Shown here one piece after another: positions 3,405 to 59,511 of a DNA stretch of 64,000 nucleotides. Under the pieces are notes generated by a model. That model saw only the letters and a list, made by a program, of their open reading frames with translations, did not search any database and was not told the origin of the DNA. The stretch comes from Candidatus Magasanikbacteria bacterium RIFCSPHIGHO2_01_FULL_33_34 (GTDB lineage Bacteria; Patescibacteriota; Patescibacteriia; Magasanikbacterales; UBA922), in contig MFPS01000007.1 of the NCBI GenBank assembly GCA_001782825.1, positions 148,487 through 212,486 on the forward strand. The letters run 5' to 3'. Every line of letters begins with the position of its first letter. The stretch's first letter is position 1. Position numbers and translations under genes: made by a program.

Positions 3405-3455
3405 ATTGATTATAATTTTATTTGTAAAAATTAAAAGTGTTATTTACAATTAAGT

Positions 3456-3555
3456 ATTAATTCCAATTATTTATTTTTACTCATTCTCGCCTCGGCTCTG
3501 AGGGTGATGCCTGTTGAGGCATCAAATCCGTAAAAATAAATAATTGGAATTAATA
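3456..3555 (-). repeat. Nested palindromic intergenic element, copy R1 (subfamily A); core 3481-3529 in minus orientation
   Basis: Arms ttaattccaattatttatttttac / gtaaaaataaataattggaattaa enclose the core. Core reverse-complement: GGATTTGATGCCTCAACAGGCATCACCCTCAGAGCCGAGGCGAGAATGA. Outer flanks homologous to R3/R7. Confidence 0.8.
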
Positions 3556-3590
3556 TAATCATAATTTAAAATACATATATAACTTACATT

Positions 3591-8420: not shown

Positions 8421-8447
8421 TTTTTATTTTTACAAATTTACAATAAA

Positions 8448-8547
8448 ATTAAAATATGATTCATTCTGAACGGATTTGTTTGGCACAACAGCCAAACACC
8501 TCGGAGCCCAAGGCGATAATGAGTGAAGAATGAATCATATTTTAATT
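8448..8547 (+). repeat. Nested palindromic intergenic element, copy R2 (divergent subfamily C); core 8472-8522
   Basis: Arms aattaaaatatgattcattc / gaatgaatcatattttaatt. Core GGATTTGTTTGGCACAACAGCCAAACACCTCGGAGCCCAAGGCGATAATGA. Apical hairpin GTTTGGC/GCCAAAC carries compensatory changes relative to GGTTGCC/GGCAACC of subfamily B. Confidence 0.8.
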
Positions 8548-8580
8548 TGTTGTAACATACATGATATAATTGTAATCACT

Positions 8581-9970: not shown

Positions 9971-10119
9971 TACAACCAAGGCACCTGCGAAGAATCTGTT
10001 CGCCTGCCTATTTTATTTCTGAACTATATTTGGAAATAAAATAAGGAGTATAATGCGAACAGTTTTTTTGTTTTTAAAATAAAACTATTAAAAACAAAAA
10101 ATCACCAAATATTTGATGA

Positions 10120-10162
10120 TTTTTTGTTTTTGCCTGTAGCTATTCAAAGCTACAGGCTTATT
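10120..10162. terminator. Bidirectional rho-independent terminator between convergent genes
   Basis: gcctgtagc-tattcaaa-gctacaggc with a U-run on both sides. Confidence 0.55.
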
Positions 10163-10184
10163 GGAATGAATATATTCCTCCTCA

Positions 10185-10586
10185 TTATTTATTGAAGTCT
10201 ACTACATGTTGATGTATGTCTTCTTCAGACTTTTTTTGAGAATTATCCTTATTATGTTTTCTTCGCTTCCCCTTGCCTTTTTCTAAACTAGGAAACATAC
10301 TATTTATCTTGGATTTAATCTCCTGTGCTTTATTACTCTCAACAAACACGTAAAAAATCTGAATATACTTATTACCCCTGACCTTTACCTCCAAACCAGA
10401 TCTAGTTTCATTGCAAATTACACTCCCCTGCGAAACTGATTTGATTGATGATATTATACCAATAGAAATTCCTTTGACACCATCAAGTGTCTTCAGAAAA
10501 TCTACCACTGGACCAGATGCATCAATGATGGTAGTATGTCTACCCCTGAACTTATCACCACTACGATGATTCTTCTTACTCATCAA
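10185..10586 (-). CDS. Hypothetical 133-aa protein, GC-elevated islet
   Basis: ORF track; 9 nt downstream of the 10596-11126 gene (2-gene operon); no motif recognised. Confidence 0.45.
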   Translation of the reverse strand: MMSKKNHRSGDKFRGRHTTIIDASGPVVDFLKTLDGVKGISIGIISSIKSVSQGSVICNETRSGLEVKVRGNKYIQIFYVFVESNKAQEIKSKINSMFPSLEKGKGKRRKHNKDNSQKKSEEDIHQHVVDFNK

Positions 10587-10595
10587 ACTACCCCT

Positions 10596-11126
10596 CTAGC
10601 GACGACTCAGTACTTCGTCCCAAGTAGACTCGTAGTAAGGACCCATGACATTTGATTCCCAAACAAGACCATACTTAGTCCAAAACTGAATTGATTCACT
10701 AAACTCATCCCTGTTATACCCAGGACGACTAAATGCAAAATTGGTAGGCTCTTTAGGAGTATTAGCTCCTACGTATCCAGTAATCAAAAACCACTGAATT
10801 CCACGTTTTACAGCAACTAGAGTAAACAATGAACTATTAAGCTTCACACCACCAACAACCACGTGTGTTGGCTTATCACGACCAATACGAACAGCAAAGG
10901 TATGTGGTCGATCTGGAAACCTTTCTACAAGTGAACTTTGGCCAATAATCTGACCAAAATTAATCTCACCTGCGTGAAATATTTTACCGTAAGGTAGCCT
11001 TGTTCTTTTAGCTGCCTCTTCGAGCAACCCTCCTGCTTCTGGATGAGCACGAAGATGTTCTACAGTATCATCATTAAGATGAATAATATTACCACACAAT
11101 GTTCTGAGTTCACGTGGAACAAGCAT
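10596..11126 (-). CDS. Hypothetical 176-aa protein, GC-elevated islet
   Basis: ORF track; strong GGAGG ribosome-binding site 7 nt before ATG; GC ~42%; no motif recognised. Confidence 0.5.
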   Translation of the reverse strand: MLVPRELRTLCGNIIHLNDDTVEHLRAHPEAGGLLEEAAKRTRLPYGKIFHAGEINFGQIIGQSSLVERFPDRPHTFAVRIGRDKPTHVVVGGVKLNSSLFTLVAVKRGIQWFLITGYVGANTPKEPTNFAFSRPGYNRDEFSESIQFWTKYGLVWESNVMGPYYESTWDEVLSRR

Positions 11127-11309
11127 GATATGCCTCCATTGAGCTTTTGAATGTCTATGGTTTTCGCCTTACTTATACTGACAAGGCTCATCAGTCCGTA
11201 ACTCTTACGGAGAACCATAAACTTTTAATTTTCTCAATATAAAAATATACTACAAAACTATACTTTTGTCAATAATGCCCAAAAACAAAAAGAGCGACCA
11301 ATTGCTCTT

Positions 11310-11666
11310 TTACTCCTTTCTATTTTTTGGAAAATCTTTTTCTGCTTGTTCAATAATAACTACAAATATTTCAAATTGTGCTTTAGTAAGTCCCTTTGCT
11401 TGAAGTATTTCCATATATGCTTCCATAAATTCAATAATTTTTTGCCTCAAAATTCTAAAATCTTTTTTTTCAACAATCTCACGAACTGAGATAAACCGTT
11501 TCTGAATACTTTCAATATCCTCCAATGATACTTTTTCACCATGCACCGAATCAACTATTGCTAATTCCAAAAGACTCTTAAACTCTACCAAACTTCCAAA
11601 CTTATTTAAAAGATCAACTATCTCACCTCTCAAAATATTCAAATTATGCGCAGAATTTTTTTCCAT
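11310..11666 (-). CDS. Hypothetical ~118-aa helical protein
   Basis: ORF track (start alternatives at 11687 or 11666); followed by hairpin terminator aagagcgaccaattgctctt. Confidence 0.4.
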   Translation of the reverse strand: MEKNSAHNLNILRGEIVDLLNKFGSLVEFKSLLELAIVDSVHGEKVSLEDIESIQKRFISVREIVEKKDFRILRQKIIEFMEAYMEILQAKGLTKAQFEIFVVIIEQAEKDFPKNRKE

Positions 11667-11723
11667 AAACACCCCTCCTTTACCCAAAGATATACTACAA
11701 TATCACCGCTGTCAACCAAAACA

Positions 11724-11748
11724 AAAGAGCGACTTCAAGTCGCTCATC
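11724..11748 (-). terminator. Rho-independent terminator of the 11752-12360 gene
   Basis: gagcgacttgaagtcgctc + TTTTGTTTT on minus strand. Confidence 0.5.
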
Positions 11749-11751
11749 CCA

Positions 11752-12360
11752 TTATTTGTCCCCATTTCTTTTGAATGGTATTATTTCTGCCAATTTTTTA
11801 TCTGAATCTATTTCTTTTTTTATTTCTACATCTCTTGAAAAAATTATTTTCAATTCAGTAGTATCAATTTCTGCAGAATCAACCGGATATTTGTGTTGCC
11901 TACTACCACATCCATAACCAGGTGTAGTCACCCAAACATCACTATGCTGATGAAAAGATCTTATAAAAATATGCTCCAAAACTAATAAATTTCGCATTCC
12001 TGAACGAATATCAATAGCTGGGTCACTATGATGTTCTTTGAAAAAATCGACCATATTAGAAACATCATCTCTATGAACAATATACAAATATTGAACCTTT
12101 TTAGTACCTTCTGAAAAATCAACTACCATCAAAACACAATACTTCAAATGATCCAGGCTAGAAACATTATATGTAGTCTCACAATGCCACTGAGGTATTT
12201 CTTTTTTTATTGGTTTTATTGATTTAGTAGGATATTTGTCATTTCCCTTTATTATTGGTTTAATGAAATCTTCAATAAACCACCCAAATACTACAATCCC
12301 CAACACCATCAAAGGTATCAAAAAATAATCAGCATAATTCATAATACCCTCCTTATACAC
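11752..12360 (-). CDS. N-terminally membrane-anchored hypothetical protein (several His/Asp clusters)
   Basis: ORF track; TM FLIPLMVLGIVVFGWFI; no confident family. Confidence 0.45.
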   Translation of the reverse strand: MYKEGIMNYADYFLIPLMVLGIVVFGWFIEDFIKPIIKGNDKYPTKSIKPIKKEIPQWHCETTYNVSSLDHLKYCVLMVVDFSEGTKKVQYLYIVHRDDVSNMVDFFKEHHSDPAIDIRSGMRNLLVLEHIFIRSFHQHSDVWVTTPGYGCGSRQHKYPVDSAEIDTTELKIIFSRDVEIKKEIDSDKKLAEIIPFKRNGDK

Positions 12361-18078: not shown

Positions 18079-18100
18079 ATTTATATAATTTCATGTTAAG

Positions 18101-18262
18101 TTGTAAGAATTGAAAACGTTATTTATAATTAAGCATTATTTCCAATTATTTGTTTTTACGGATTTGAGGCCCCAACAGGCATCACCCTCGGAGCCGAAGC
18201 GAGAATGAGTAAAAATAAATAATTGGAAAAAATGCGGTCATGATTGAAAGTATAAACAATAC
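18101..18262 (+). repeat. Nested palindromic intergenic element, copy R3 (subfamily A) with outer flanks; inner insert 18133-18232, core 18160-18208 in plus orientation
   Basis: Core GGATTTGAGGCCCCAACAGGCATCACCCTCGGAGCCGAAGCGAGAATGA. The outer 35+33-nt flanks recur contiguously, without the 100-nt insert, at 23945-24010. Confidence 0.8.
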
Positions 18263-18362
18263 TACTATATATTACAGTTAAGCTATTTTAACATTTTATA
18301 AATAAAAATAAAAGACCATAAAAGTCTCTTATTTAATTTGTTTTAAATTATATAAACAATAA

Positions 18363-23920: not shown

Positions 23921-23944
23921 ATTTCAAAATTTTAATTTACAATC

Positions 23945-24010
23945 TTAATTGTAAGAATTTAAAACATCATTTATAATTAATGCGATCGTGATTGAAAGTA
24001 TAAACAATGC
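23945..24010. repeat. Apparent empty-site paralogue of the R3 flanks (outer repeat without the inner insert and core)
   Basis: TTGTAAGAATTtAAAACaTcATTTATAATTAA|TGCGaTCgTGATTGAAAGTATAAACAATgCTA, ~90% identical to 18101-18132 plus 18233-18262. Confidence 0.6.
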
Positions 24011-24074
24011 TATTTTATCTTACAAATTAATTAACACTATTCATACACTATTATATAAAATTATTAACAATATT

Positions 24075-24638
24075 TCAAATCTTTCCTGAACCTAAAGGGT
24101 TATATCCATTAGTAATTTCATAACCATCCGAAAAGCCATCCCCATCTGTATCAGATTTAGTCGGGTCAGTTTTATATTCTTCCACTTCTAATTTATCCGA
24201 TATACCATCCCAATCAGTATCAAATTCTGTATTACTTATACCTAATCTTTCTTCTTCAATATCCAAAACACCATCATTATCCAAATCATCATCTTCCAAT
24301 CTCAAAGAGGTAACTCCTATATTTTGTTTTTGTACTTTTTCAATTGGCTTTTTAACTTCCACTTCTACGCTCGTATCCTCTGTCTCACTTATTTTTTTAA
24401 TATCTTTTTTTACAAAAATATTAGTAAAAAAAATTAAATATACTAATATACTTATCAAAATAATGATACCACTAATAATCAAAATCATTTTAAATTTTGA
24501 TTTTCTTTGTGGATAGTCAAGTTCATTGCTATATACATTTTGATCCACTATTTTATTGTCATCTTGATATTCATTCATCTTATATTTAATTAAATTATTA
24601 TAAATATTATGGTTCAATATATGGCGGATCAACCACAT
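24075..24638 (-). CDS. Single-pass membrane protein with TSP3-like Ca-binding repeats ending NGYNPLGSG
   Basis: TM MILIISGIIILISILVYLIFF; DDDLDNDGVLDIEEE…TDWDGISD…SDTDGDGFSDGYEITNGYNPLGSGKI; start overlaps the giant gene's 3' end by 32 nt. Confidence 0.5.
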   Translation of the reverse strand: MWLIRHILNHNIYNNLIKYKMNEYQDDNKIVDQNVYSNELDYPQRKSKFKMILIISGIIILISILVYLIFFTNIFVKKDIKKISETEDTSVEVEVKKPIEKVQKQNIGVTSLRLEDDDLDNDGVLDIEEERLGISNTEFDTDWDGISDKLEVEEYKTDPTKSDTDGDGFSDGYEITNGYNPLGSGKI

Positions 24639-27600
24639 CTATTACACAACGACAGTCTACATTACAAGTTTCAAGCGCATAACAACCAGCATTTGATCCA
24701 TCACATTCTTCACCTGGTGGTTGTATAATTCCATCACCACAATAAGCTGGTGGAAGTATAATCAAAGGCCCACATTCACAATTTGAATAACACTCTTCAA
24801 AGAAACCACAATTTAATGAACTACCATCACATTCCTCATTTGCTTCTCTACTACCATTACCACACACTGCATAGCCATCACAAGTATTAAGACAATTATT
24901 TTGACCTGGAATTGCTGGATCACATATCTCACTTCCATCAATCCTACCATCACCACAAATAGACAATTCACCAATAACTCCACCCGTCTGAATCTGTTCA
25001 GCACTAGTAGCAATTCTATTTAACGGCAATATCTCATAATCACCAGAAGTTGCATCTCTATCTATATTAAACAAATGCCAATATCTCGCTGCAGGATTTG
25101 AACTCTTTAGAGCATCTTCTATAACATAAGTAATATCTGGTCTAAATACAGTCCGGAAAGATTCTGCTCCGGCTGGAGTTTCTCTATATTCATAAACATA
25201 AACTTCCAAATCACTATCATCAAAATATGCCATCGGTACCCCACCGGCCACACTTTGTGCTTCTACAAATACTGCATACGGCCCATAATTCAATAAAGAA
25301 TTTGGCGCAGTATTGAGTGGTATATTTATGGTCATTGATTGTATAAAAGTATCTTCACCCTCATTGATATCATGCATATAAAAACCTTCATTACCAAGCC
25401 CCAATGGCCAAACTGTACAACTTCTGGTTGTATTTGCAAAATTATAGTCAGGAATCCAATAACCACCAACCAGTTCTGTACCGATACAGATCTGTTTTGG
25501 TGTTGCCATATTTCTTTGCATAAACCTATCAGTTCCACCCAAAGTATCATCAGCTGACAAAATACCTAAACCAAAATCTGTACCACCAAATTCTTGTGAT
25601 TCTTCTCTTGTCCATTTAAGCACAACCCTAATTTGTCCTTCTGGTAAAGCAGGAGAAACAATAAAATCATTCACAACAGTATTTAATTCATTATTAACAT
25701 CATAACTATATACAAATTCTGATTCTGGTGATGTTTCTAGACAATTTTCAGTTCCAGCTTGAGGTGTCAAACACATATAATAACTACCATTACAAGCATT
25801 GTCAGCGATAATGCCATTCAATATATCTGTTTCACCCCATGGATAAAATATATTACTAGGTACATACATAACATCAACCAAATCAGGTCCTGCATAAAAT
25901 TGCACTCTATTATTTACAAGAAGTGAACTACCACTATTAGTCAAAAAATATGGTCCATTAGGCTCTGTATAATCTCTAAAATAAAACTTTGCAAACAATC
26001 CATTAGGGTCTGTACCCCATTGCCCACCAGAATAATGCAAACTAATCATCGGATTTAATATTCTCAAACTAGGATCAATGCCACCGCTTGTTAGTCTCTT
26101 ACTTCCACACTGTATACAATTATTATATAAAAATCCACAACTATTTCTACACTCATAATTACCAGTCAAAGTAGTATAAGTCCCATTCTCTAAAGAATAA
26201 TTACCACTTCGTCTGCTACATTGATCTAATTCAAATGTGCCAGAATTTGTCACAATATAAGGATTTGGACAATTTGCACCAACACAATTAGGTCTAACAT
26301 ACTCACAAACCTCAGTTCTAGAACAAAAATTATCAACACAATACCCAGAATTACAATCTGTGTTAGCAGTACAATAACCAAGTGGTTGACAAAAACCTGC
26401 TGGGCTACAATAATTAGAATCACAATCAGCCACTTGAGTAGCAACAGTACACGGATCATTAATATTTCCACTACCACCATAATCTACCAATGAAATAACA
26501 TCAATATTCTCATTACCACAATAAGCATTTGGTTCAATATAAAGTACCTCTCTACAATCCCATGAACAAAAGTTACAGCCTTGGTTGTAACCAGGGACAC
26601 ACTGGACACCATTTATACCATCACCTCTATCACATACTTCACCAGCATCAATATTACTATTACCACAATTACCTAAATCAGGCGTAACATTATCTACAGG
26701 CGCAGAAGCTTCATTTCTACAATTATTTGCACAACCATCTCCGCTAATATTGTTACCATCATCACATTCTTCGGCTGAAGTACATACTCCTGCACTACAA
26801 TTATTTGAAAAACATTGACTATTATTTAAGCAGATTGCACCACTATTACCAGTATGCAAAATTCCATCACCACAACGAGGACCTAATTGTTTACAATTTG
26901 CTGAACAACTATTAGAAGGTAGAGCAAATGTTGGTGGTGTTAAATATGCACCATTGTTAGCTCCTATATCACAATATTCAACTGGTGAACAAACATTCAT
27001 AGCCAAACAATTTCTATTTGTTCCACAACTTGTAACACAAGCATTAGGATTACCGGTACAATTTACATTATTAAATGCGCAATAACTATTTACAACATTA
27101 TCACCACAAAAACTGGCACTAAAAGTACACATAGCCGAACAATTTCCAGGTGTACCATTTAATGCCCCATCATCACATTGTTCTAATCCATCTACCCTAC
27201 CATTACCACACAAAATATCAACATCACAGCCACTATCCTGCCAATTACACGAACTATTACAAACTCTAGCTAAAGTACCCGAAATAGGTACACCATTCAC
27301 ATCTACTGCACAAGCATTTAATGTGTCAACCAATTGGCCAGGAGGATCACACTGTTCAGTACCATTTACAATCCCATTACCACAAGAACCAGACAAAGGT
27401 GATTCTGTACTTCCAGACACACCACACATAGAACCAATCTGAAAATGACTAACATCTATAAATGAACCCAAATCAGACAATCCAAAATATTCTGGACGCC
27501 CATAAATCATATAATCATTTGCTACATCAGGTCTATACTCTAATACTGATGAAACTGCTGGACAAATAAATCTACTATTCACTTCATCCCAACAGGTCTG

Positions 27601-30600
27601 ACTATCTACAGTCACACATACCTCCCCAGCACCAGCACAATCAACATCTGTTGAACAGAGTTGTTCAACTCCATCAACCAGACTACCTGGAACATGACAA
27701 TAATTACAAGTTGTCCAACGATTTATCGGATCAATTCCTACCCCACCACCAATTTCTTGACCCAAATTACCCCAAGATGGCCACAATGAACGAGTTCTAC
27801 CTGGTATATATGTACCAGCACGCAACTGTGGCGCTTCTGAACCAAAATCAACATATCCATTCATGGCTACTTGCGCATTGCGAATAGTAATGAATCTTGA
27901 CCAATCTCTTCTCATCTTTGTCTGATCTGCAGAACACATACCAGTTCCACCACCCAAAGGATTACCCAATAAATCCCTACAATCAAAATCAGTACTACAA
28001 GAAATATCTACCGCATTTTCACAAAACAAATCATTTGAAATATTAGAATTAAATTCCAATGAATTAATCAATTGTTCAAAAACATCATAAGTATTTTGTT
28101 GTGCATTTTCATTTATACTAAATACAAATATATTATTGTATAGCTCACCTAATCCAGGTCTATTAGCTGCCGATATATAATAATTACTACCATTAGTCAT
28201 AGCTTCATAACCATCAACTGAAATTTGATTGAATCCAGTTGGTTCACCAATTTTTCTCCTAAACCATTGAGTTAATGTTTCCTTTTCTAAAATAGTTGGT
28301 GCACTGTCTGTTAGAAAAACTTGCAAACCAATCACATCATCATTTACAGAATTGAAGAATAAAAAGCGTTTCAAATTTTCAGCATCTGGTAAACCAGAAG
28401 CTATATTAAATACAAATGGTCTTAAGTATGGCAAATCGTCTACTACATTACCAACCAAACCACTGTCGGCACAATAACTCATTTCAAAATTAAAGAAATC
28501 TCCATTTACATTACTCGTTCCAAGCATAGTTGAACCATCAAATATTCCAGCAGTCGTACCATCATTATTTCCAACTTCATCTTCAAATGGGAAATAATCT
28601 CTTGGTGGCCAAGGGTTTTCACAAAAAAATGAAACTAATTCGGCTGTGCCTGTAAAGGTTTGTCCAACTTGACTATCTACCAAATCTGTATCCACCAAAA
28701 CAGTTGCATGCGCACCAGCAGTTCTAGAACCCTCAAGTTCTGTAGAAGCTATAATTCTATTTGGGATATTTCCTGTAGTTATTATATCTGGATCAATTGT
28801 AAATAAAGTATCAGCTGATGGAGTCCAAAACCATTCCCAATCATATACACCCGGAATAGGACTAATCAATTGTCCACTGGTTGATTCAACAACAGCTGTA
28901 AAATTATAATCAGTATTTGGTGTATCATAAAAATAACCAGCAGGAATAACATTAATACTATTAATCTTACAAACATCATCTCCAGTTCTGAACATAAAAC
29001 TATCGTCTATTTCTCCAGTTCTAGCCACAACATTATTTAATGGACTTCTAATACCTACACCACGAACATCTTTTATACCATTATTACCCCCTTTTAATAG
29101 CACTGTATAATAAGCATTTTGTTCAAGTAAATTATTGAGATAAAAATCAACTCTACTCTCTATTACATTGCCATCAACATCAGTGGTTTTATTTACCAAT
29201 GGTAAACCACTAAATAAATTCTGTCTGCACCAAGAACCAACAGTAGCGACATTTGTAATAGAAGCTTTAGCCTGACCACCAGTAGCCCAAGTAAAAAAGC
29301 GTTTTATTGTGTTCCAAATATTTATAAAAATAGAATCACTTTTTTTATTATTATTTTCATATGCCAAAGTCCCATCAATATCAGAAGTAATATCTACACA
29401 ATCAACTGGTGGGGCTACCTCATAACCTCTTGCTATCCAAACATTATTCAACAAAGTTGTTTCATTGATATTACCATCAAAAGTCACTGATACTAATGAA
29501 TTCAAACAAACCACATTTGGATCCAATATACCAGCACCATCATAAGGATATTCATCTACTCGTTCTGGTCTATCATAACAACAAGAATTTGATCCTACAC
29601 CCAAAGTATTATTAACATTACCGCGACAATCATTATGATTATTAGCCAAATCTGGTTGTTCATACTCAGTAAAACCACAAGCCAAAGCATAATCTGCCTC
29701 ATCAGATAATTGAGTTTGTTGCGCAGGAATTAAATCTGCTAATTCACCACGAACTCGCACAATATTTGACTCTATCAATGTACTCATCAATTGTGTTCCA
29801 GGATCCAGCAATAACCTAGTGCCAACTGATCTTACAGATTGAACAGGATTTTGACCTGGTATGGCAAAACCAGCCATTTCTGCAACGGTATATTCACACC
29901 AACCATACTCTCCATCACCAACAACACCATCTCCACAAAGTGATGGAATAGTATATCTATCAATTGAAGACCCGTGTAAAGTACAATCTGGTTTACAACC
30001 TTCTTGTGTATTAGGATCACAATAAAATGGAGCTGGAATAACTGAATCACAAATATTTTGTAATAAACAATTTGAAGAACAAAGATTATCAAAATCAGCT
30101 ACAAATATTCCTGGAATTACAGTCCCATTATCACTAGCTGGGACTCCAAAATCTCCATCAAATAAATGAAATTGTCCACCAATTATTTCACACTCTTCTC
30201 CAAATTCTAATTCTCCATTTCCACATTGGCTAACCGCTTGTCTACATTCATCAGTATCCTGCCAAGCTGATCTATCATCACACCATTCTTGTACCAAACC
30301 AGTTCCAATATGTAAACAATTACTAGTACAAGTCCTACCAAGCACCTCTCCATTCAATCCTGGTTCACAATCCTCACCAACTGTAACTTCTGAACCATCA
30401 CAAATAGGTTGACCAGTTGAAGCTTCCTCAATATCTCTAGTTGAACCAATATGTAAACAAGTATTAGAACATCCAACTCGTGTTGATGATGTTAATCCTG
30501 GATCACATTCTTCACCCAAATTTGTTTCTAAAATACTATTTCCACAAGTTGCATTAGTGTTTCCCGGTCGCAAACAATTGATAGAACAAGAGTCACCAGC

Positions 30601-42459: not shown

Positions 42460-42951
42460 ATGAATGATTCTGTCTACAAACGCCCAACTTGGGATGAATA
42501 TTTTATGGAAGTAACACGAGCCGTGGCCAAAAGAGCTACTTGCGACCGAGGACGATCTGGATGCGTCATCTCCCGCGACAAACAAATTATGGTAACTGGA
42601 TATGTCGGTTCACCAAAAGGCTTGCCTCATTGTGATGAAATTGGGCATCAGATGAAATCAACTACCCACGAAGATGGTCATATTTCCCAACATTGTGTCC
42701 GTACCGCCCATGCAGAACAAAATGCTATAGTCCAAGCCGCCAAACTCGGTATCAGCATAAATGATGGCACACTGTATTGCAAAATGACCCCATGCGCTAT
42801 CTGCGCCAAAATGATCATAAACGCCGGAATTAAACGAATTGTTTGTGAAAAAAGATATCATGCCGGCAGTGAAAGTGAAGAAATGTTCAAACAAGTCGGA
42901 ATTTTTTTAGAATTTTTTGATGAAAATATAGAACAATATGACAAACAATAA
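42460..42951 (+). CDS. dCMP deaminase (cytidine/deoxycytidylate deaminase family)
   Basis: HAEQNAI and PCAICAKMI zinc-binding motifs. Confidence 0.85.
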   Translation: MNDSVYKRPTWDEYFMEVTRAVAKRATCDRGRSGCVISRDKQIMVTGYVGSPKGLPHCDEIGHQMKSTTHEDGHISQHCVRTAHAEQNAIVQAAKLGISINDGTLYCKMTPCAICAKMIINAGIKRIVCEKRYHAGSESEEMFKQVGIFLEFFDENIEQYDKQ

Positions 42952-43507
42952 ACCTGAAAAAAACATTCTTGGTTTTGTAGGCCTGCTTGCTAGTGGCAAA
43001 GGTACTGCTGCCAAATATTTGGAAGAAAAATATTATGCTGATACTTTTAGGTTTTCTACTATGTTACGAGACTTGTGCAATAGAATATATATTGAACAAT
43101 CACGCGACAACTTGATAAAAATGTCTGAAATTATTCGGGGTACATTTGGTGAAGATACTATGGCAAAAGTAATGGCAGAAGACGCAAAAAATGCAAAATC
43201 TAACATTACTATAGTTGAAGGAATCCGTCGCATGGCTGATATTGAACACTTATCAAAATTACCAAATTTTATATTAATTGAAATTTTTGCAAACCCTAAA
43301 ACTCGTTATGAGCGCTTAATCAAACGCGGAGAAAACTCAGATGATAATAATAAAACTTATGAAGAATTTCTAGAAGATCACAAACGATCAACTGAAATGA
43401 GTATCCCAGAAGTCGCTAAGAACGCCACTGAAAAAATTGACAACAATGGCAGTATAGAAGATTTACACCAACAACTAGATAATCTAGTAAAAAAATATGC
43501 AAGTTAA
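42938..43507 (+). CDS. P-loop nucleoside/(d)NMP kinase family protein
   Basis: Walker A GLLASGKGT; small kinase fold size; embedded between the dCMP deaminase and dut genes. Confidence 0.55.
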   Translation: MTNNKPEKNILGFVGLLASGKGTAAKYLEEKYYADTFRFSTMLRDLCNRIYIEQSRDNLIKMSEIIRGTFGEDTMAKVMAEDAKNAKSNITIVEGIRRMADIEHLSKLPNFILIEIFANPKTRYERLIKRGENSDDNNKTYEEFLEDHKRSTEMSIPEVAKNATEKIDNNGSIEDLHQQLDNLVKKYAS

Positions 43508-43925
43508 AATCAAGCGCATAGACAAATCACTCCCCTTGCCCACATACCAAACTAATGGAGCCGTTGCTTTTGATTTATATACTCGTATTGACGAAATAAT
43601 TCTCGCGGGTGAAACCAAAATGTTGCCAACAAACTTGATAATACAAACTCCAAATGGATATATGCTAATGATAGCCTCTCGCTCTAGCCTAGCCCAAAAA
43701 AAAGGTTTGAAAATGGCCAATGGTGTTGGTATAATAGACCAAGACTATTGTGGAGAAGATGATGAAATAAAATTATTAGTGCACAACTACACTAACAATG
43801 ATGTAGCTGTTAAAAAAGGCGAAAGACTTGGCCAAGGTGTATTTGTAAAAATAGAAAAAAGCGAATGGGAAGAAATTGAAAAAATAAATAATGAAAATCG
43901 CGGTGGATTTGGATCAACAGATTAA
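43497..43925 (+). CDS. dut: dUTP diphosphatase
   Basis: dUTPase motifs incl. C-terminal RGGFGSTD. Confidence 0.9.
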   Translation: MQVKIKRIDKSLPLPTYQTNGAVAFDLYTRIDEIILAGETKMLPTNLIIQTPNGYMLMIASRSSLAQKKGLKMANGVGIIDQDYCGEDDEIKLLVHNYTNNDVAVKKGERLGQGVFVKIEKSEWEEIEKINNENRGGFGSTD

Positions 43926-43936
43926 ATATTAATATT

Positions 43937-44746
43937 ATGGAAAAAGAAAAATTTCAACCAAACCCAATTCAAAATCTACTAATGAAAGTTATGAGTGAAA
44001 TGAGAAATAATCCTGGTTTATTTCAAGAAATGAAACAAGCAAAAAGAAGTGAAAAATTTTATTCAGAACCACTAGAGCAAAAAGATGAAACAAAAAGAAG
44101 TAAAGATACAGTAGGATTAACCCATGCAATAAATACACACAACATAACAAAAGAACTGACTGATATAGACTTAAAAAATAATAAGTTAGACGAAACACAA
44201 AGTTTTAGATTACGAATTACTGCTCTTATACATGACATGGGTGAACTTAGTCCAAAAGGTGATATTGATTACAATGAAAAATCAAGTACAGATACAAAAG
44301 AAGAAATAGAATACTTTGAAAAAAATATACAAAATCTATTTCCAAACCTATTAAAAACAGAAATTGAAAATATTTTGGAAATATATAAAGAAAATATTCA
44401 TTACAAAGATAAAGGAGAAAATACACAAGAAGCTAAATACTTTAATATGGTTGAATTTGTAGGAGCTCTAATGCACGCTCTGGAAGAATTTGATGAAAAA
44501 AGAGACAATATGAAATGGAGACGATTCTGTGATGATTATCTATATAATATAGCAGAAAAAATAGAAAATATAATAAATAATTATCCTGCAGCAAAACAAT
44601 ATCTATCCAATCACAAAAATAAATTACAAAAAATGATAAATTGGGCAGAAAAAGAAATAAAAGAAAATCCAAAACACAAAGAAATGGAAAAATTGACAGA
44701 TGAAAAAATAATTACTTGGAAAAATATTTTAAAAAAAATATCTTAA
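43937..44746 (+). CDS. HD-domain phosphohydrolase (possible 5'-deoxynucleotidase)
   Basis: H…HD motif (LTHAINTHNI … ALIHDMGE). Confidence 0.5.
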   Translation: MEKEKFQPNPIQNLLMKVMSEMRNNPGLFQEMKQAKRSEKFYSEPLEQKDETKRSKDTVGLTHAINTHNITKELTDIDLKNNKLDETQSFRLRITALIHDMGELSPKGDIDYNEKSSTDTKEEIEYFEKNIQNLFPNLLKTEIENILEIYKENIHYKDKGENTQEAKYFNMVEFVGALMHALEEFDEKRDNMKWRRFCDDYLYNIAEKIENIINNYPAAKQYLSNHKNKLQKMINWAEKEIKENPKHKEMEKLTDEKIITWKNILKKIS

Positions 44747-44857
44747 TTTATACAAAAAAATGTATATTTATAAAAAATTAAAAATAAGTTAATAATATAA
44801 ATAATTAAAATTAATAAATTAACAAAAATTTTATTTAATTAATCTAAGCAAAAAAAT

Positions 44858-45103
44858 ATGAAACGGCCACATATAGAAGGAAAACTTCCTGGTGTAAATG
44901 AAGGTGGAAACCCACCACCAATTAAACCAGGCGAAACTATAGAAGACGCAGCCAAAAGACTTGGAATCAAAACAAAGACTGACTTAGAACAAGAAGAATG
45001 GGAAAAAGTAGAGCATGAAGCACGTAGACAATTAGCTAATGGTACAGATACAGAAATCCATTTAATAGATATAGAGGATATAGAAGATACACCTAGAGAA
45101 TAA
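44858..45103 (+). CDS. Hypothetical 81-aa acidic protein
   Basis: ORF track only. Confidence 0.3.
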   Translation: MKRPHIEGKLPGVNEGGNPPPIKPGETIEDAAKRLGIKTKTDLEQEEWEKVEHEARRQLANGTDTEIHLIDIEDIEDTPRE

Positions 45104-45132
45104 CAAGTATAAATAACTAAGTCTAATACAAT

Positions 45133-46005
45133 ATGCAAGCATATCTAGATATTGTAAAAAAAGTATTAAATGAAGGCATAAAAAAAGATGATAGAACTGG
45201 AACAGGTACGCTCGCAATTGCAGGGGCGATGTTTGAGCATGATATGTCCAAAGGTTTCCCATTGATTACTACCAAAAAAATGCCTTACAAAGTAATCGCT
45301 TCTGAACTTGAATTTTTTATAAAAGGATTGACTGACAAAAAATGGCTACAAGAAAACAAAAATCATATTTGGGATGAATGGGCCAACCCCAAAAAAGCTC
45401 CTTATGGCCATGATATAGAATCAAAAAATAAAATGGCAGAAGAACGAGATTTAGGACCAATCTATGGTTTCCAATGGCGCCACTTCAATGCACCATATTA
45501 CAATTATGATACTGACTATCGCAACCAAGGAGTGGATCAATTACAAAAAGTAATAAATACTCTCAAAGAAAATCCTACTGACAGAAGAATGATAGTTTGT
45601 GCATGGAATCCTACTATGATGGACCAAATGGCTTTGCCACCATGTCATTATTCTTTTCAAGTTACCGTCCTTGACGGAAAAATTAATTTACTTTGGAATC
45701 AAAGATCAGTTGATGTAATGTTAGGACTCCCCTTCAATATTGCTAGCTATGCAACCATGCTTCATCTACTTGCCAAAGAAACCAAGCTTGGTGAAGGAAA
45801 ATTGGTTGGATTTTTGGCAGATGTCCATATATATTCCAATCATATTGAAGGCGCACATGAACAAATTACTCGTGACCCAAACAAATTTCCACTTCCTAAA
45901 CTTGTAACCGAAAATTTTACTAATATTTTTGATTGGCAATGTCAGAATAGTAAAATAGTTGGATATGAAAGCTACCCAAAAATATCATTTGATATAGCAA
46001 TTTAA
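45133..46005 (+). CDS. thyA: Thymidylate synthase (ThyA)
   Basis: Canonical ThyA sequence incl. active-site PPCH (…ALPPCHYSFQ…). Confidence 0.95.
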   Translation: MQAYLDIVKKVLNEGIKKDDRTGTGTLAIAGAMFEHDMSKGFPLITTKKMPYKVIASELEFFIKGLTDKKWLQENKNHIWDEWANPKKAPYGHDIESKNKMAEERDLGPIYGFQWRHFNAPYYNYDTDYRNQGVDQLQKVINTLKENPTDRRMIVCAWNPTMMDQMALPPCHYSFQVTVLDGKINLLWNQRSVDVMLGLPFNIASYATMLHLLAKETKLGEGKLVGFLADVHIYSNHIEGAHEQITRDPNKFPLPKLVTENFTNIFDWQCQNSKIVGYESYPKISFDIAI

Positions 46006-46031
46006 GCATTTCAAATTAAAAACTAACCAAT

Positions 46032-46538
46032 ATGCCCTTCTCTCTTATAAGTGCGATTGCAAAAAATAACTGCATTGGCAAAAACAATAAACTTCCTTGG
46101 AATATCCCCGAAGATTTAGAGCATTTCAAACAATTAACTCTCGGCAAAAATTGTATTATGGGCCAAGCAACCTTTGAATCAATCTTGGGTTATCTTGGCA
46201 AACCACTACCAGGCAGGCAAACAGTCGTATTAACTTTAAACAAAGACTATACTGTACCTAAGGGCGTAAAGATATTTCATTCAATTGAAGATGCTTGGGA
46301 AACTCTCAAAGATGAAGATAATTTTGTCTGTGGTGGAGCAACAATTTACAAATTAACCATAGACAAAGTTGATACTCTATATATTACTCATGTTCATATG
46401 GAAGTTGATGGTGATGCATTTTTTCCAGAAATTGATAAAAATATTTGGCAAGAAGTAGAAAGAGAAGATCATGAAAAATTTTCATTTGTAACCTATAAAA
46501 AAGTTCATAGTTCAGAGCCAATAGCCAATAATTCATAA
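46032..46538 (+). CDS. folA: Dihydrofolate reductase
   Basis: ISAIAKNNCIGKNNKLPWNIPEDLEHFKQLT… DHFR signature. Confidence 0.9.
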   Translation: MPFSLISAIAKNNCIGKNNKLPWNIPEDLEHFKQLTLGKNCIMGQATFESILGYLGKPLPGRQTVVLTLNKDYTVPKGVKIFHSIEDAWETLKDEDNFVCGGATIYKLTIDKVDTLYITHVHMEVDGDAFFPEIDKNIWQEVEREDHEKFSFVTYKKVHSSEPIANNS

Positions 46539-46903
46539 TCAATCAGATTATTAATACATACAGAGAACTCATCGTATGGCAAAAATCAATAGAATTAGTA
46601 ATAGAAATTTATAAATTAACAAACTTATTCCCTACAGAAGAAAAATTTGGTTTAATTTCACAAATGAAAAGATGTTCAATTTCAATACCATCAAATATAG
46701 CAGAGGGATATGCAAGAAAAAATAAAAAAGAAAATGCTCATTTTATAAATATATCATTTGGTTCTGCAACAGAACTTGAAACACAAATTATTATTTCTAA
46801 AAAATTAAATTTTATTAACAACAATCAATGGGAAAAAGTAGATCAACTTTTGCTTGAAGTTTTACGGATGTTATATAAATACCGACAAGCACTTTATACT
46901 TAA
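46535..46903 (+). CDS. Four-helix-bundle protein (23S rRNA intervening-sequence protein family); no canonical ATG at the conserved N-terminus
   Basis: In-frame …YRELIVWQKSIELVIEIYKLTNLFPTEEKFGLISQMKRCSISIPSNIAEGYARK… matches the family; only ATA/ATC/ATT codons between the upstream TAA (46529) and the conserved VWQK. Confidence 0.55.
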   Translation: MINQIINTYRELIVWQKSIELVIEIYKLTNLFPTEEKFGLISQMKRCSISIPSNIAEGYARKNKKENAHFINISFGSATELETQIIISKKLNFINNNQWEKVDQLLLEVLRMLYKYRQALYT

Positions 46904-46928
46904 TTCTATTGGCTATGAACTACCAACT

Positions 46929-47615
46929 ATGAACTACAAAAAAGGATTATTCATAATGCTTGAAGGAACAGATGGTTCTGGAAAAACCACTCAAACCCAA
47001 TTATTACTTGATCATATAAAAAAAGAAGGTAAAAAAGTAAAAGAAATAAGCTTCCCCCAATATGGCACACCTAGTGCCTCAATGGTAGAAAAATATTTGA
47101 ATGGCGAATTTGGTACAGCTGAAGAAGTCGGGCCATACCGTGCTTCTATTTTTTATGCAATTGATAGATATGCCCATAGTCAACAAATAAAAAAATGGTT
47201 GGAAGAAGGTTATATTGTAATCGCCAATAGATATGTCGGATCAAATATGGGACATCAAGGTGGCAAAATAAAAAATGAAATAGAAAGAAAAAAATACTTT
47301 GAATGGAATTATAATCTTGAATACAATATATTTGGGATATCCAAGCCTGATATAAATATTATACTGCATGTTACACCAGAAATCTCACAACAACTTGTCG
47401 ACAAAAAAGAGACAAGAGACTATATAAAAACTGACAAAAAAAGAGATATACACGAAGATGACCTCAACCATCTTAGAGATGCTGAACTGGCATATTTACA
47501 AATAGCCAAATCCTTTCCAGAATTTCACCTAGTAGAATGCGTTGAAAAAAATGAAATATTACCATCTGAAACTATTCACAAAAAAATATGGGGATACATA
47601 CAAAAATTTATATAA
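46929..47615 (+). CDS. tmk: Thymidylate kinase
   Basis: MLEGTDGSGKTTQ P-loop, DRY motif; start placed at MNYKK. Confidence 0.85.
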   Translation: MNYKKGLFIMLEGTDGSGKTTQTQLLLDHIKKEGKKVKEISFPQYGTPSASMVEKYLNGEFGTAEEVGPYRASIFYAIDRYAHSQQIKKWLEEGYIVIANRYVGSNMGHQGGKIKNEIERKKYFEWNYNLEYNIFGISKPDINIILHVTPEISQQLVDKKETRDYIKTDKKRDIHEDDLNHLRDAELAYLQIAKSFPEFHLVECVEKNEILPSETIHKKIWGYIQKFI

Positions 47616-48436: not shown

Positions 48437-48560
48437 TTGAATAGGCCCTATAATTTCTTTGAAAACCCTTTAATACAGGGCTTTTCATTTTTTAGCTTAA
48501 ATGATAACATATAGATAAATGCATAAAATAAATTAATTATAAAATATTTAACAAACAGAA

Positions 48561-48680
48561 TAATTAATAATTAGAGATTATTATGAGCGGATTTGGTTGC
48601 CACAACAGGCAACCACCTCGGAGCCATAGCGAGAATCCTGCCGGCAGGCAGGGAGCGAATGATAATCTCTAATTATTAAT
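48561..48680 (+). repeat. Nested palindromic intergenic element, copy R4 (subfamily B) carrying an extra CCTGCCGGCAGGCAGG palindrome
   Basis: aattaataattagagattattat-GAGCGGATTTGGTTGCCACAACAGGCAACCACCTCGGAGCCATAGCGAGAAT[CCTGCCGGCAGGCAGG]GAGCGAATGA-taatctctaattattaatt. Confidence 0.85.
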
Positions 48681-48733
48681 TTCTATTTCAGATTATAAAT
48701 TAATTAATACTCCTCATAAATGAATAATAATCT

Positions 48734-50306: not shown

Positions 50307-50411
50307 ATAATTAATGATTAAAGATTATTATGAGCGGATTTGGTTGCCACAACAGGCAACCACCTCGGAGTCAAAGCGAGAATGAGAGAATAATAATCTT
50401 TAATCATTAAT
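50307..50411 (+). repeat. Nested palindromic intergenic element, copy R5 (subfamily B)
   Basis: aattaatgattaaagattattat-GAGCGGATTTGGTTGCCACAACAGGCAACCACCTCGGAGTCAAAGCGAGAATGA-gagaataataatctttaatcattaatt; shares 25 nt of right-hand extension with R4. Confidence 0.85.
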
Positions 50412-50573
50412 TTCTATTTCAGATTATAAATTAATCCACAGCTATACAGTTGCATCAATTACAATATACTGATAAACTGAATCAAACTATGAAAAAATTA
50501 AAATTACAGACAATTGATTATAAACAATATTAGAGACTTACCATCCCGAAAGGGGTGGTATTTTTTTGAAAAT

Positions 50574-56266: not shown

Positions 56267-57460
56267 GTGAAAATAAAAACTTTTGATAACCAAACTATTG
56301 ACTTACCAATAGAAGAAAACATATCTCAAAAAAATATTATTGCTTTACCAGGACTCATTGATCCTCATGTACATTTTCGTATACCTGGGGGAGAACACAA
56401 AGAAACTTGGGAAACTGGCGCCCAAGCTGCCATCGCTGGTGGTGTCTGTACAGTCCTTGATATGCCAAATAACAACCCTTCAATAACCGATGAAAAAACT
56501 TTTTTAGAAAAAAAAGAAATAATAAAAAAACAATTAAAAAATACAGACATAAATCTAAACTATTTTTTATACTTAGGAGCAACTGAAAATAATATAAATG
56601 AAATAAAAAAACTAAAAAATGAAATAGTGGCAGTAAAAATGTTTATGGGATCAAGCACTGGCAATCTTTTGGTGGCAGATCTTGAAAAACAAAAAGAGAT
56701 TTTTAAAATATGCGGTGAATTAAATATACCCCTAGCAGTCCATGCTGAAAATGAAGCCATGATTATTGAAAATACACAGAAGCTATCAGACTCAATCAAT
56801 AATATTACTACTCATTCCAAGATTCGCTCACGAGAAGTAGCCGAGTCTGCTGTAAAACAAGCAATTAAACTCGCAGAAATTTATAAAACTAAATTATATA
56901 TACTCCACTGTAGCACAAAAGAAGAAATGGACTTAATAAGACTTGCCAAACAAAAAAATATTGATGTCTCAGCTGAAGCTTGCCCACACCACCTATTTTT
57001 AAATGATACAGCGTATGAAAAATTTGGCAGTAAAGTACAAATGAATCCACCTATACGTACTAGCACAGACAATGAAGCATTGTGGACCGCCCTTATTGAT
57101 GGCACTATTGATACCATTGGAAGTGACCACGCTCCTCATTTATTATCTGAAAAAGCAAATCCTTATCCTAATTCCCCTTCTGGAATACCCGGTATAGAAA
57201 CCACTCTGCCACTTTTATTAAATGCTTATAATCAAGACAAAATAAAACTGGAAAAAATTGTTGAACTGACAAACACAAATGCCAAAAAAATATTTAACCT
57301 AAAAATAACTGACAGTTGGGTAATAGTTGATTTGGATTTAGAAAAAGAAATAAAAAATGAAAATTTAAAAACTAAATGTGGCTGGTCCCCTTTTGCTGGA
57401 CAACTCATCAAAGGCTGGCCAATCTATACAGTATTAAACAATAAAATATATAAATTATAG
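56267..57460 (+). CDS. pyrC: Dihydroorotase
   Basis: LPGLIDPHVHFR metal-binding motif, amidohydrolase fold. Confidence 0.85.
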   Translation: MKIKTFDNQTIDLPIEENISQKNIIALPGLIDPHVHFRIPGGEHKETWETGAQAAIAGGVCTVLDMPNNNPSITDEKTFLEKKEIIKKQLKNTDINLNYFLYLGATENNINEIKKLKNEIVAVKMFMGSSTGNLLVADLEKQKEIFKICGELNIPLAVHAENEAMIIENTQKLSDSINNITTHSKIRSREVAESAVKQAIKLAEIYKTKLYILHCSTKEEMDLIRLAKQKNIDVSAEACPHHLFLNDTAYEKFGSKVQMNPPIRTSTDNEALWTALIDGTIDTIGSDHAPHLLSEKANPYPNSPSGIPGIETTLPLLLNAYNQDKIKLEKIVELTNTNAKKIFNLKITDSWVIVDLDLEKEIKNENLKTKCGWSPFAGQLIKGWPIYTVLNNKIYKL

Positions 57461-57507
57461 TAAAAATATAATAGTATTGTTTACACTTTTACAACGACCG
57501 CATTATT

Positions 57508-57625
57508 TTCAATTATTTATTTTTACTCCCTGCCTGCCGGCAGGCAGGATTCTCGCTTTGGCTCCGAGGGTGATGCCTGTTGAGGCCTCAAATCCGTAAA
57601 AATAAATAAACAAATTAATGCTTAA
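57508..57625 (-). repeat. Nested palindromic intergenic element, copy R7 (subfamily A, core in minus orientation) with the extra CCTGCC(TGCC)GGCAGGCAGG palindrome
   Basis: rc core GGATTTGAGGCCTCAACAGGCATCACCCTCGGAGCCAAAGCGAGAAT[CCTGCCTGCCGGCAGGCAGG]GA; arms aattatttatttttac / gtaaaaataaataa; outer flanks homologous to R3. Confidence 0.8.
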
Positions 57626-57673
57626 TTATAAATAACACTTTTAATTGTTATACCTTGCATAAAATAATATATT

Positions 57674-58735
57674 ATGATTAACACCCCATTTTACGACCCA
57701 ACAAAATCCTATGAAGAAAATTACTCAGATGGACCTTTTGGTGCATTTGCTGACAATGAAATATATCAAAACCAAGGTGAGCCAAACTATGATTATCACA
57801 ATCACAAAGTCTATTCACCTTTCGGTATTCCAGCTGGTCCAATTATAAATAGTAATTTTGCCAAAAGCGCCTTTGAAAAAGGATTTGATTTAGTTGTTTA
57901 TAAAACTGTCCGCACTGGTATTTTTCCCTGCCACCCTCACCCAAATATAATGGCCATACATATTGATAAAATAACTCCTGAAATAATGGCTGGCAAAATA
58001 ACCGCTGACACCAACTACACTGAACCGCTAACCATAACAAATTCTTTTGGCGTACCATCCAAAGATCCAGATGAATGGCAAATAGATATAAAAAAAGCTA
58101 TTAGTTATGCAAAGACTGGACAAATGTTAATAGCTGGCTTTATGGGCACAGTAAAAGAAAATCAAACCCAAGAAGAATTTATAAAAGATTATGCTTTGGC
58201 AGCGCGACTAACCAAAGAAACTGGCGCAAAAGTATTGGAGGCAAATCTATCTTGTCCAAATATTGGAAATGAAGGTCTTGTCTGCTACAACATTGATATT
58301 ACTCACAAAGTCTGCAAAGCTATACGAGATGAAATCGGCAATACACCACTTGCTATAAAACTTGGTTATTTTAATAATGATAATGAATTAAAAAAAATAG
58401 CTGAAATTGCCCATAATTATGTTGATGAAGTAATAGCCATAAATACTCTACCCTCAACTATTGTCGACAAATATGGTAATCAAGCTTTGAAAGGTCAGAA
58501 CCGAGTAAAAAGTGGTATATGTGGAGCCGGCATCAAATGGGCTGGACTTGATATGGTCAAAAGACTCAAAAAAATACGAGACGAAAATAATTATAAATTC
58601 TCCATCACTGGAGTAGGTGGAGTAATGAATAAAGAAGATTTCAAAGAATACCAAAATATTGGAGCAGAAATAGTCATGTCTGCAACTGGCGCTATGTGGG
58701 ATCCATACTTAGCTCAAAAAATTAAATCAATTTAA
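57674..58735 (+). CDS. pyrD: Dihydroorotate dehydrogenase (class 1-like, Cys active-site base) with ~50-aa N-terminal extension
   Basis: NLSCPN active site, GxGGV FMN-binding motifs. Confidence 0.8.
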   Translation: MINTPFYDPTKSYEENYSDGPFGAFADNEIYQNQGEPNYDYHNHKVYSPFGIPAGPIINSNFAKSAFEKGFDLVVYKTVRTGIFPCHPHPNIMAIHIDKITPEIMAGKITADTNYTEPLTITNSFGVPSKDPDEWQIDIKKAISYAKTGQMLIAGFMGTVKENQTQEEFIKDYALAARLTKETGAKVLEANLSCPNIGNEGLVCYNIDITHKVCKAIRDEIGNTPLAIKLGYFNNDNELKKIAEIAHNYVDEVIAINTLPSTIVDKYGNQALKGQNRVKSGICGAGIKWAGLDMVKRLKKIRDENNYKFSITGVGGVMNKEDFKEYQNIGAEIVMSATGAMWDPYLAQKIKSI

Positions 58736-58788
58736 TAAATAATTTAAATCAATTATAAAATACTTAAATTATTTATTTTTAACAATAC

Positions 58789-58891
58789 AATTAATAATTA
58801 GAGATTATTATGAGCGGATTTGGTTGTCACAACAGGCAACCACCTCGGAGCCACAGCGAGAATGAGCGAATGATAATCTCTAATTATTAAT
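58789..58891 (+). repeat. Nested palindromic intergenic element, copy R6 (subfamily B)
   Basis: Identical arms to R4; core GAGCGGATTTGGTTGTCACAACAGGCAACCACCTCGGAGCCACAGCGAGAATGA (apical stem C-to-T gives a G·U wobble). Confidence 0.85.
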
Positions 58892-58905
58892 TTAACAAAT
58901 TTATT

Positions 58906-59511
58906 ATGAATTCAGACTTAGATCAATTAATCTTAGACCTCTATGATATTGAGGCTATCAAATTTGGCGAATTTGAATTAAAAAGTGGCTTAATATCACC
59001 AATATACATGGACATCCGTCTAATAGTTTCATATCCAAAAATACTAAAATCAATTGCAAAAATAATGTGGAGTAAAGTATGTAAAATTGAATTTGATATA
59101 ATCTGTGGAGTGCCATACACTGCCCTACCAATCGCAACTGTTATGTCTACCCAAAATAACAAACCAATGATAATGCGAAGAAAAGAAGTAAAAAAATATG
59201 GAACAAAAAAAATAATAGAAGGTAAATTTGAAAGTAAACAAACATGTCTTGTAGTTGAAGATCTCGTCACTAGTGGCTCCAGTATTTTTGAAACCATTGA
59301 ACCAATTGAAGACGTCGGATTGATTGTAAAAGATATTATTATTCTAATTGATCGTGAACAAGGTGGAAAAAATCATATTGAAAACAAAGGCTACAAACTA
59401 CACAGCATAGCAAAAATATCTGAAATCTTGAAAGTATTAAAAAAATATGAAAAAATAGATACAAATACTTTCAACAAAGTAAATAAATTTATTAAAGAAA
59501 ACCAAGTATAA
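58906..59511 (+). CDS. pyrE: Orotate phosphoribosyltransferase
   Basis: PRPP-binding VVEDLVTSGSS motif. Confidence 0.85.
   Translation: MNSDLDQLILDLYDIEAIKFGEFELKSGLISPIYMDIRLIVSYPKILKSIAKIMWSKVCKIEFDIICGVPYTALPIATVMSTQNNKPMIMRRKEVKKYGTKKIIEGKFESKQTCLVVEDLVTSGSSIFETIEPIEDVGLIVKDIIILIDREQGGKNHIENKGYKLHSIAKISEILKVLKKYEKIDTNTFNKVNKFIKENQV

Follow-up and report, generated by a model that had tools for sequence, protein, structure and literature searches.

Among the small repeats described in bacterial genomes, the Correia (NEMIS) elements of Neisseria carry inverted repeats of ~26 bp that fold as a long hairpin in read-through RNA, are accompanied by target-site duplications and can have promoter-like ends. 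ERIC (IRU) elements are imperfect palindromes of similar size found in transcribed intergenic regions, including those within operons, and their variants arise by internal insertion at fixed sites. The Rickettsia palindromic elements (RPEs) are palindromic repeats of ~100-150 bp residing in a small, AT-rich, reduced genome, and we know of no enzyme that mobilises them. In ordinary MITEs, it is the terminal repeats that form the conserved part of the element. Finally, for the hairpin-forming REPINs, compensatory changes across the hairpin have been reported (PMC3116915).

We analysed a window of 64 kb (the whole stretch of DNA presented above, ~32% GC) from Candidatus Magasanikbacteria, an uncultivated groundwater bacterium of the CPR (Patescibacteria), a group with tiny genomes. 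With its flanks, the region examined amounts to ~80 kb in all, i.e. ~7% of the ~1.17 Mb genome. The core pattern GGATTTGN{6,8}CAACAGN7CCTCNGAG has seven matches in the window, compared with none expected, and a covariance model built from the copies recovered exactly the same seven. No diverged copies were detected by this model in the window or in the first 11.6 kb of the flanks. An eighth copy, R8, was located ~9 kb beyond the right-hand end of the window, flanked by a TrmB-family gene on one side and, on the other, by a HAD hydrolase gene, which it precedes. The copies, referred to as hairpin modules, are 103-123 nt in length and fall into three subtypes: type A (R1, R3, R7 and R8), type B (R4, R5 and R6) and R2, which stands alone. 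All eight are intergenic, five in sense and three in antisense orientation relative to transcription, and are dispersed over the ~80 kb together with five units of a second repeat, F (Table 1). We consider it probable that these copies represent a small, non-coding, non-autonomous, MITE-like mobile element that has spread through the intergenic DNA of one Magasanikbacteria genome.

Table 1 Hairpin modules, F units and P4 palindromes. Positions are those of the window unless another scaffold is named.
Feature	Position	Strand	Description
F1 carrying R1	3424..3587	-	164 bp; 9-bp target-site duplication 9/9
R1	3454..3556	-	type-A hairpin module, perfect 26-bp stem; upstream of 103-aa DUF5663 gene
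R2	8445..8549	+	divergent hairpin module, 26 stem positions including tandem G.A/A.G pairs
F3 carrying R3	18103..18275	-	173 bp; target-site duplication 7/9, 18094-18102 and 18276-18284
R3	18133..18235	+	type-A hairpin module, between ftsZ and nrdR; antisense to both
F0, without hairpin module	23951..24023	-	73 bp; target-site duplication 7/9, 23942-23950 and 24024-24032
R4	48562..48681	+	type-B hairpin module, 27-position stem including tandem G.A/A.G; upstream of gatB
P4 in R4	48637-48652		16-nt version of palindrome
R5	50309..50412	+	type-B hairpin module, between gatB and carA
F7 carrying R7	57460..57653	+	194 bp; no detectable target-site duplication (1/9)
R7	57500..57622	-	type-A hairpin module, between pyrC and pyrD: outer stem, conserved core and optional palindrome P4
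P4 in R7	57529..57548		perfect 20-nt GC palindrome CCTGCCTGCCGGCAGGCAGG, between GAGAAT and GAG of core
R6	58789..58892	+	type-B hairpin module, between pyrD and pyrE; end 13 nt before pyrE ATG
F8 carrying R8	484-654 of scaffold L029, outside window		target-site duplication 8/9
R8	523-625 of scaffold L029, outside window		type A, perfect 26-bp stem

Each copy consists of an AT-rich outer stem of 26-27 positions enclosing a conserved, asymmetric core of 49-69 nt. The cores have a GC content of 51-62%, compared with ~32% for the window. They contain an inner hairpin (P2) of 6-7 bp with the loop NCAACA, a conserved CACC(C)TCGGAGCCNAAGCGAGAATGAG stretch and an optional GC palindrome (P4), which is perfect and occupies the identical core position in R4 (type B) and R7 (type A). 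The outer arms can barely be aligned across subtypes; what is retained is their pairing and their length. When the stems are placed in register without gaps, pairing is seen in 93% of cells, but only in ~40% if the partners are slid; both sides have changed in 14 of the 20 stem pairs. Six arm substitutions separate R5 from R4 within type B, and four of these make up two compensated pairs (P ~0.0015 by simulation), the same two double substitutions being compensated relative to R6 as well. Compared with R1 and R3, the R8 arms show one indel and several differing positions, and the 26-bp stem is still perfect. In R7, where the stem is imperfect, the 5' arm is of the R8 kind and the 3' arm of the R3 kind, which explains the imperfect pairing. 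The inner hairpin also covaries: R2 shows two compensatory changes in P2 relative to type B, and R8 a compensatory change from C-G to U-A. Stem complementarity and length appear to be actively maintained, which suggests that a folded single strand, of DNA or RNA, matters for the propagation or the tolerance of the element.

Such conservation of structure could also mean that the hairpin module is a functional structured RNA, either a site acting in cis on processing or stability or a small RNA, with a copy number that reflects its function and a core folded into a three- or four-way junction that is catalytic or is recognised by a protein. A conserved core sequence combined with covarying stems argues in this direction, and so does the inner pair at columns 41-50, which occurs as CG, GC, UA or UG. 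At stem positions 3-4, counted from the core, type B and R2 keep tandem G.A/A.G pairs, the optional hairpin is found at one fixed site, folding of the modules as RNA yields z-scores of -4 to -9, and the only departures from Watson-Crick pairing in the stems are G.U pairs on the sense strand. However, DNA inverted repeats yield the same covariation signal. Three of the eight copies are antisense to their flanking genes, and the strand asymmetry of folding energy, compared in order to distinguish selection at the RNA level from selection at the DNA level, revealed no consistently favoured strand. A proposed third helix (CUCG/CGAG) shows zero covariation among the copies. Rfam 15 gave no match at gathering thresholds over the window, and only chance-level snoRNA and miRNA matches at E values up to 10 over 57470-58920, the region of R7 and R6. 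Moreover, copies of the same subtype are 91-97% identical, non-pairing flanks included, which, together with the target-site duplications described below, is the signature of recent transposition. Thus, we judge a functional RNA to be an unlikely explanation for the copies.

Specific candidates were rejected as well. By eye, a hammerhead was dismissed because the antisense CUGUUGAG lacks the essential A6 and no GAAA is present. A riboswitch was rejected since the copies are nearly identical including their flanks, occur in both orientations and are associated with target-site duplications. A conserved small peptide was also rejected: the longest ORFs are 26-40 aa, their frames differ and no ORF is common to the subtypes. 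A six-frame translation of a chimeric element query found no match in the protein database.

The type-A modules are part of a larger unit. BLAST of the module flanks showed that both flanks of R3 recur side by side at 23949-24024 without a module, and four of four type-A modules occupy the identical point of this second repeat, F. Alignment of the five F copies defines ends GTAAG...CTTAC and unit lengths of 73-194 bp; an HMM of F over the 80 kb found no copies beyond these five. In F1, the target-site duplication reads ATTTTATTT and is located at 3415-3423 and 3588-3596. In the AT-rich flanks, the background probability of a match of at least 7/9 is 0.012 and that of a match of at least 8/9 is 0.0023. 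Four matches of 7/9 to 9/9 at homologous boundaries are far beyond chance and indicate that F is a transposed unit with 9-bp target-site duplications. Judging from these boundary sequences, type-A units have demonstrably transposed. In the model that we propose, the type-A module, which sits in the middle of a unit of 164-194 bp ending in GTAAG...CTTAC, came in with this unit, which would have been inserted by a putative transposase making 9-bp staggered cuts, the duplications themselves being directly observed. With lengths below ~300 bp, the type-A units correspond to the working definition of a MITE, a cognate transposase excepted. Their outer terminal inverted repeats, GTAAG/CTTAC, are short (4-7 bp) and qualify only weakly as the terminal repeats of a MITE. 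To our knowledge, there is no parent insertion sequence for these units, and no transposase gene, Y1 included, was found among the called genes of the ~80 kb.

The unit that carries no module, F0, is located upstream of a 288-aa gene and reads CGCATTA and ATTATAAAT on the two sides of the module site. When the stretch of F7 that follows CGCATTA and ends in GCTTA, directly before ATTAT, is removed, the F0 sequence is obtained exactly. F0 may represent either an F unit left empty or a product of deletion. In F1, the R1 core is flipped relative to the F arms when compared with R3, R7 and R8, which could reflect either an inversion between the 26-bp arms or an independent insertion of a module at the same F site.

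These last two observations bear on another possibility, namely that the module is separate from the transposon that carries it and that its core is recognised as a folded single strand, or that a new functional RNA motif of the CPR rides on mobile DNA. An HUH/Y1 transposase or a reverse transcriptase would be possible recognisers, and the 26-27 bp arms would be regenerated or selected for complementarity and fixed length. Such a module could insert at the centre of other palindromes in either orientation, which would account for R1 being flipped in F and for F0 as an empty site. We hold either version to be improbable.

For type B and R2, no consistent termini or target-site duplications were found. 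A 12-nt direct repeat, ATAAATTAATTA, surrounds R4 at 48528-48539 and 48695-48706, 22 nt and 13 nt from the stem, respectively; its right-hand copy is common to R4 and R5 and may therefore belong to the element rather than to a target duplication. More generally, R4 and R5 have in common a right-hand extension of 23 nt (50413-50435 at R5). An 8-nt repeat around R6 was rejected as a target-site duplication: it would include the native pyrE start and was judged coincidental.

Returning to the MITE-like element that we favour, its spread by transposition is supported by several lines of evidence. Firstly, seven copies are present where none is expected, with an eighth outside the window, in both orientations and with no shared ORF. 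Secondly, four of the five units have target-site duplications (9/9, 8/9, 7/9 and 7/9), and a 73-bp paralogue exists without the module. Thirdly, the cores are GC-rich, the stems covary, the spacer between pyrC and pyrD is filled by an insertion and two scaffolds break inside R7. Counting against it are the absence of a transposase in the ~80 kb, the ~100% identity of the sampled populations and the lack of consistent ends for R2 and type B. The pattern of conservation counts against it too: simple cut-and-paste does not account for a conserved core with long arms that vary at constant length.

We conclude that the elements form a new family within the MITE/ERIC-like class of small, mobile, palindromic repeats. 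The sequence-only reading had likened them to the ERIC and BIME elements of enterobacteria, which is correct as to kind, a small palindromic intergenic repeat, and does not extend to a sequence relationship with E. coli repeats: blastn against phages, plasmids and 5,426 complete E. coli genomes returned no match. The insertion of P4 resembles the fixed-site internal insertions of ERIC. In contrast to ERIC and BIME/REP, the core here is asymmetric instead of palindromic, a 35-nt REP unit headed by GTAG is lacking, and the host is a member of the CPR. With Correia/NEMIS, the elements have in common a size of ~100-190 bp, the absence of coding capacity, many intergenic copies in either orientation, inverted repeats of ~26 bp and, in the type-A units, target-site duplications. 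They differ in that no sequence similarity is found, the duplication is 9 bp and not TA, the long inverted repeats are internal and flanked by arms of 30-40 nt ending in GTAAG/CTTAC, and these inverted repeats vary by subtype around a conserved core. As in REPINs, the repeat forms a hairpin of which the pairing ability and length matter, suggesting a folded single-stranded intermediate. However, a REPIN is made of two conserved terminal REP sequences and a variable spacer, whereas in the present repeat conservation lies in the centre and variation in the arms; REPINs lack target-site duplications, type-A units have 9-bp ones, and no RAYT gene is present in the ~80 kb. Lastly, RPEs are comparable in size and in their occurrence in a small, AT-rich genome, but they also insert in frame into protein-coding genes, unlike the eight copies here, which are all intergenic, and there is no sequence relationship between the two.

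We also searched for the elements beyond the region. The exact core had four, four and zero matches in GTDB representatives, JGI metagenomes and IMG/VR, respectively, all of them chance matches without the hairpin or the 3' core; the source genome seems to be outside this set. No description of small repeats in CPR bacteria was found in the literature. In a protein index, identical copies of the PyrD protein of the window are present on 17 contigs, including MFPW01000009.1 (GCA_001782875.1). The window is matched at 99.9-100% identity by contigs from other samples, and no insertion polymorphism was seen among the sampled populations. In two metagenome scaffolds from other samples, the first base falls within P4 of R7 (window 57528), and the R7 element appears to break metagenome assemblies. 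The nearest relatives of PyrD are 66% identical and lack synteny, and their loci show neither a conserved operon context nor the element.

We then considered the position of the copies relative to genes. The neighbours listed for R3, R4, R5, R7 and R6 in Table 1 are those named in the sequence-only reading and hold. For R2, a SprT-like gene had been named; the neighbour is an ORF of 158/175 aa with only sub-threshold zincin-like matches, and this assignment is not established. All copies had been placed 15-100 nt upstream of a start codon. All are indeed upstream, at measured distances of 49, 31, 54, 52, 161, 51 and 13 nt for R1-R5, R7 and R6, R5 falling outside the range if one counts to the called carA start (50574). 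As a signal, this placement carries little: with the elements removed, 94% of intergenic bases are upstream of a start codon, and the probability that all seven copies are is ~0.65. The median distance to the start codon is 51 nt, compared with 53 nt to the preceding stop codon. Among the 62 intergenic regions of the window, 56 separate co-directional genes, three are divergent and three convergent. Upstream placement is what insertion into the little non-coding DNA on offer in a gene-dense, mostly co-directional genome would give. It had also been suggested that genes next to the elements rely on them in place of a Shine-Dalgarno sequence, a proposal that loses its basis since only 7 of the 58 window genes have this motif, making its lack beside the elements uninformative.

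A special link to nucleotide metabolism, for which four of the seven downstream genes had been cited, finds no support either. The window is unusually rich in genes of that class, which make up about 16 of its 58 (dCMP deaminase, kinase, dut, thyA, folA, tmk, carAB, pyrBICDEF, gmk and nrdR), and the probability of at least 4/7 is ~0.1, with copies that are clustered and not independent. The association with start codons and with nucleotide metabolism is at chance level. As was claimed, the pyr operon is interrupted by two copies, between pyrC and pyrD and between pyrD and pyrE. The pyrC-pyrD spacer of 213 nt consists of the F7::R7 unit and the 20 nt that separate it from the pyrD ATG, the unit starting at the G of the pyrC stop codon, and the remaining pyr junctions overlap or are at most 11 nt apart. 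Since this spacer is nearly all F7::R7, the "split operon" is a transposon insertion. Nothing here makes the element a regulator of nucleotide metabolism.

With regard to the gene content itself, a compact dNTP/thymidylate cluster at 42460-47615 (dCMP deaminase, kinase, dut, thyA, folA and tmk) adjoins the complete pyr operon. The CPR group is generally described as being without nucleotide biosynthesis, and this arrangement thus seems notable. Between folA and tmk, at 46550-46903, lies a 117-aa gene of the 23S_rRNA_IVP/bAvd-like family (E = 3e-39). One member of the bAvd family serves diversity-generating retroelements as their accessory protein. We saw no gene for a reverse transcriptase in the 80 kb.

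Do the copies affect the genes beside them? It had been proposed that they act as internal terminators or attenuators, which would tune the nucleotide-metabolism operons. The interruption of the pyr operon by two copies, the presence of another between gatB and carA and the stability of the long hairpins would suit this role. However, five terminator-like sites were found in 47.6-59.6 kb, where 7.0 are expected from shuffles, and none is on R4, R5, R7 or R6, the four copies located there; none is found around F0 and R8 either. The stem bases are AT-rich, and the type-B stem is followed by a U-rich stretch and not by a clean U-run. R7 and R6 are oriented in opposite directions within one operon, a conventional hairpin with seven T's is already present 4 nt before carA, and the enrichment in nucleotide-metabolism genes is not significant given the gene content of the window. 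We therefore regard a role as terminators or attenuators as highly improbable. The hairpin before carA (50539-50570, TACCATCCCGAAAGGGGTGGTA), located 4 nt before the called carA start, is independent of R5; it may terminate gatB or serve as an attenuator in a pyr leader.

A second proposal, that the elements are mobile promoter modules, finds weak support in the outer arm of the type-A units and nothing comparable in type B and R2. The outer arm would be a portable promoter and 5'-UTR, and insertions would rewire expression, including by an internal promoter in the pyr operon. All five F units are oriented alike toward the downstream gene (the DUF5663 gene, nrdR, pyrD, the HAD hydrolase gene and the 288-aa gene). 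In the direction of the gene, a scan detected TTGTAA-17-TATACT in F0 and F8, and by eye, CTGTAA-17-TATACT is seen in F3 and a weaker version in F7. In four copies, the proximal end of the unit is 12-23 nt from the ATG, as opposed to ~45 nt at R8. The 5/5 orientation corresponds to only P ~0.06, however, and promoter-like hexamers are common in AT-rich DNA (86 in 12 kb compared with 60 expected). Each F arm has a TTGTAA-17-TATAMT promoter-like motif, the pair facing each other, so that the opposite arm has an equally good motif facing the other way. A portable promoter is thus a possibility that we entertain tentatively and lean against. A sigma-54 promoter was also considered and rejected by eye: TGGCAC is present solely in R2 and lacks a TTGC partner.

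In the transposition model, any effect on neighbouring genes would be a side effect, possibly through cutting of the read-through stem by RNase III or through a promoter in the outer arm. A double-stranded RNA stem of 26-27 bp in a read-through transcript would be a plausible candidate substrate for RNase III. Insertions could break operon transcripts or add promoters. With about one miniature-transposon copy per 10 kb in the region and a pyrC-pyrD junction filled by one of them, the tiny genomes of the CPR appear to be still reshaped by selfish DNA. The combination of a conserved core and covarying arms of constant length also provides a clean natural test case for the structure-dependent maintenance of repeats.

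Three further features of the window were observed. At 24607-37151, two giant surface-type proteins of 3499 aa and 679 aa are encoded next to each other and share an N-terminal domain of ~136 aa (51% identical) of the T4SS_pilin type (PF18895). Searches for paralogue loci in the same genome by this pilin domain gave matches in other organisms only, and the fetched loci were without the element. At 9479-12342, strong Shine-Dalgarno sequences (AAGGAGG, GGAGG) precede five consecutive small genes of unknown function, and this region may be a foreign island. Lastly, a long, GC-rich hairpin of 70 nt followed by a T-run lies at 8344-8420, immediately behind rplT and ahead of R2, and probably serves as the operon terminator, its size being unusually large.
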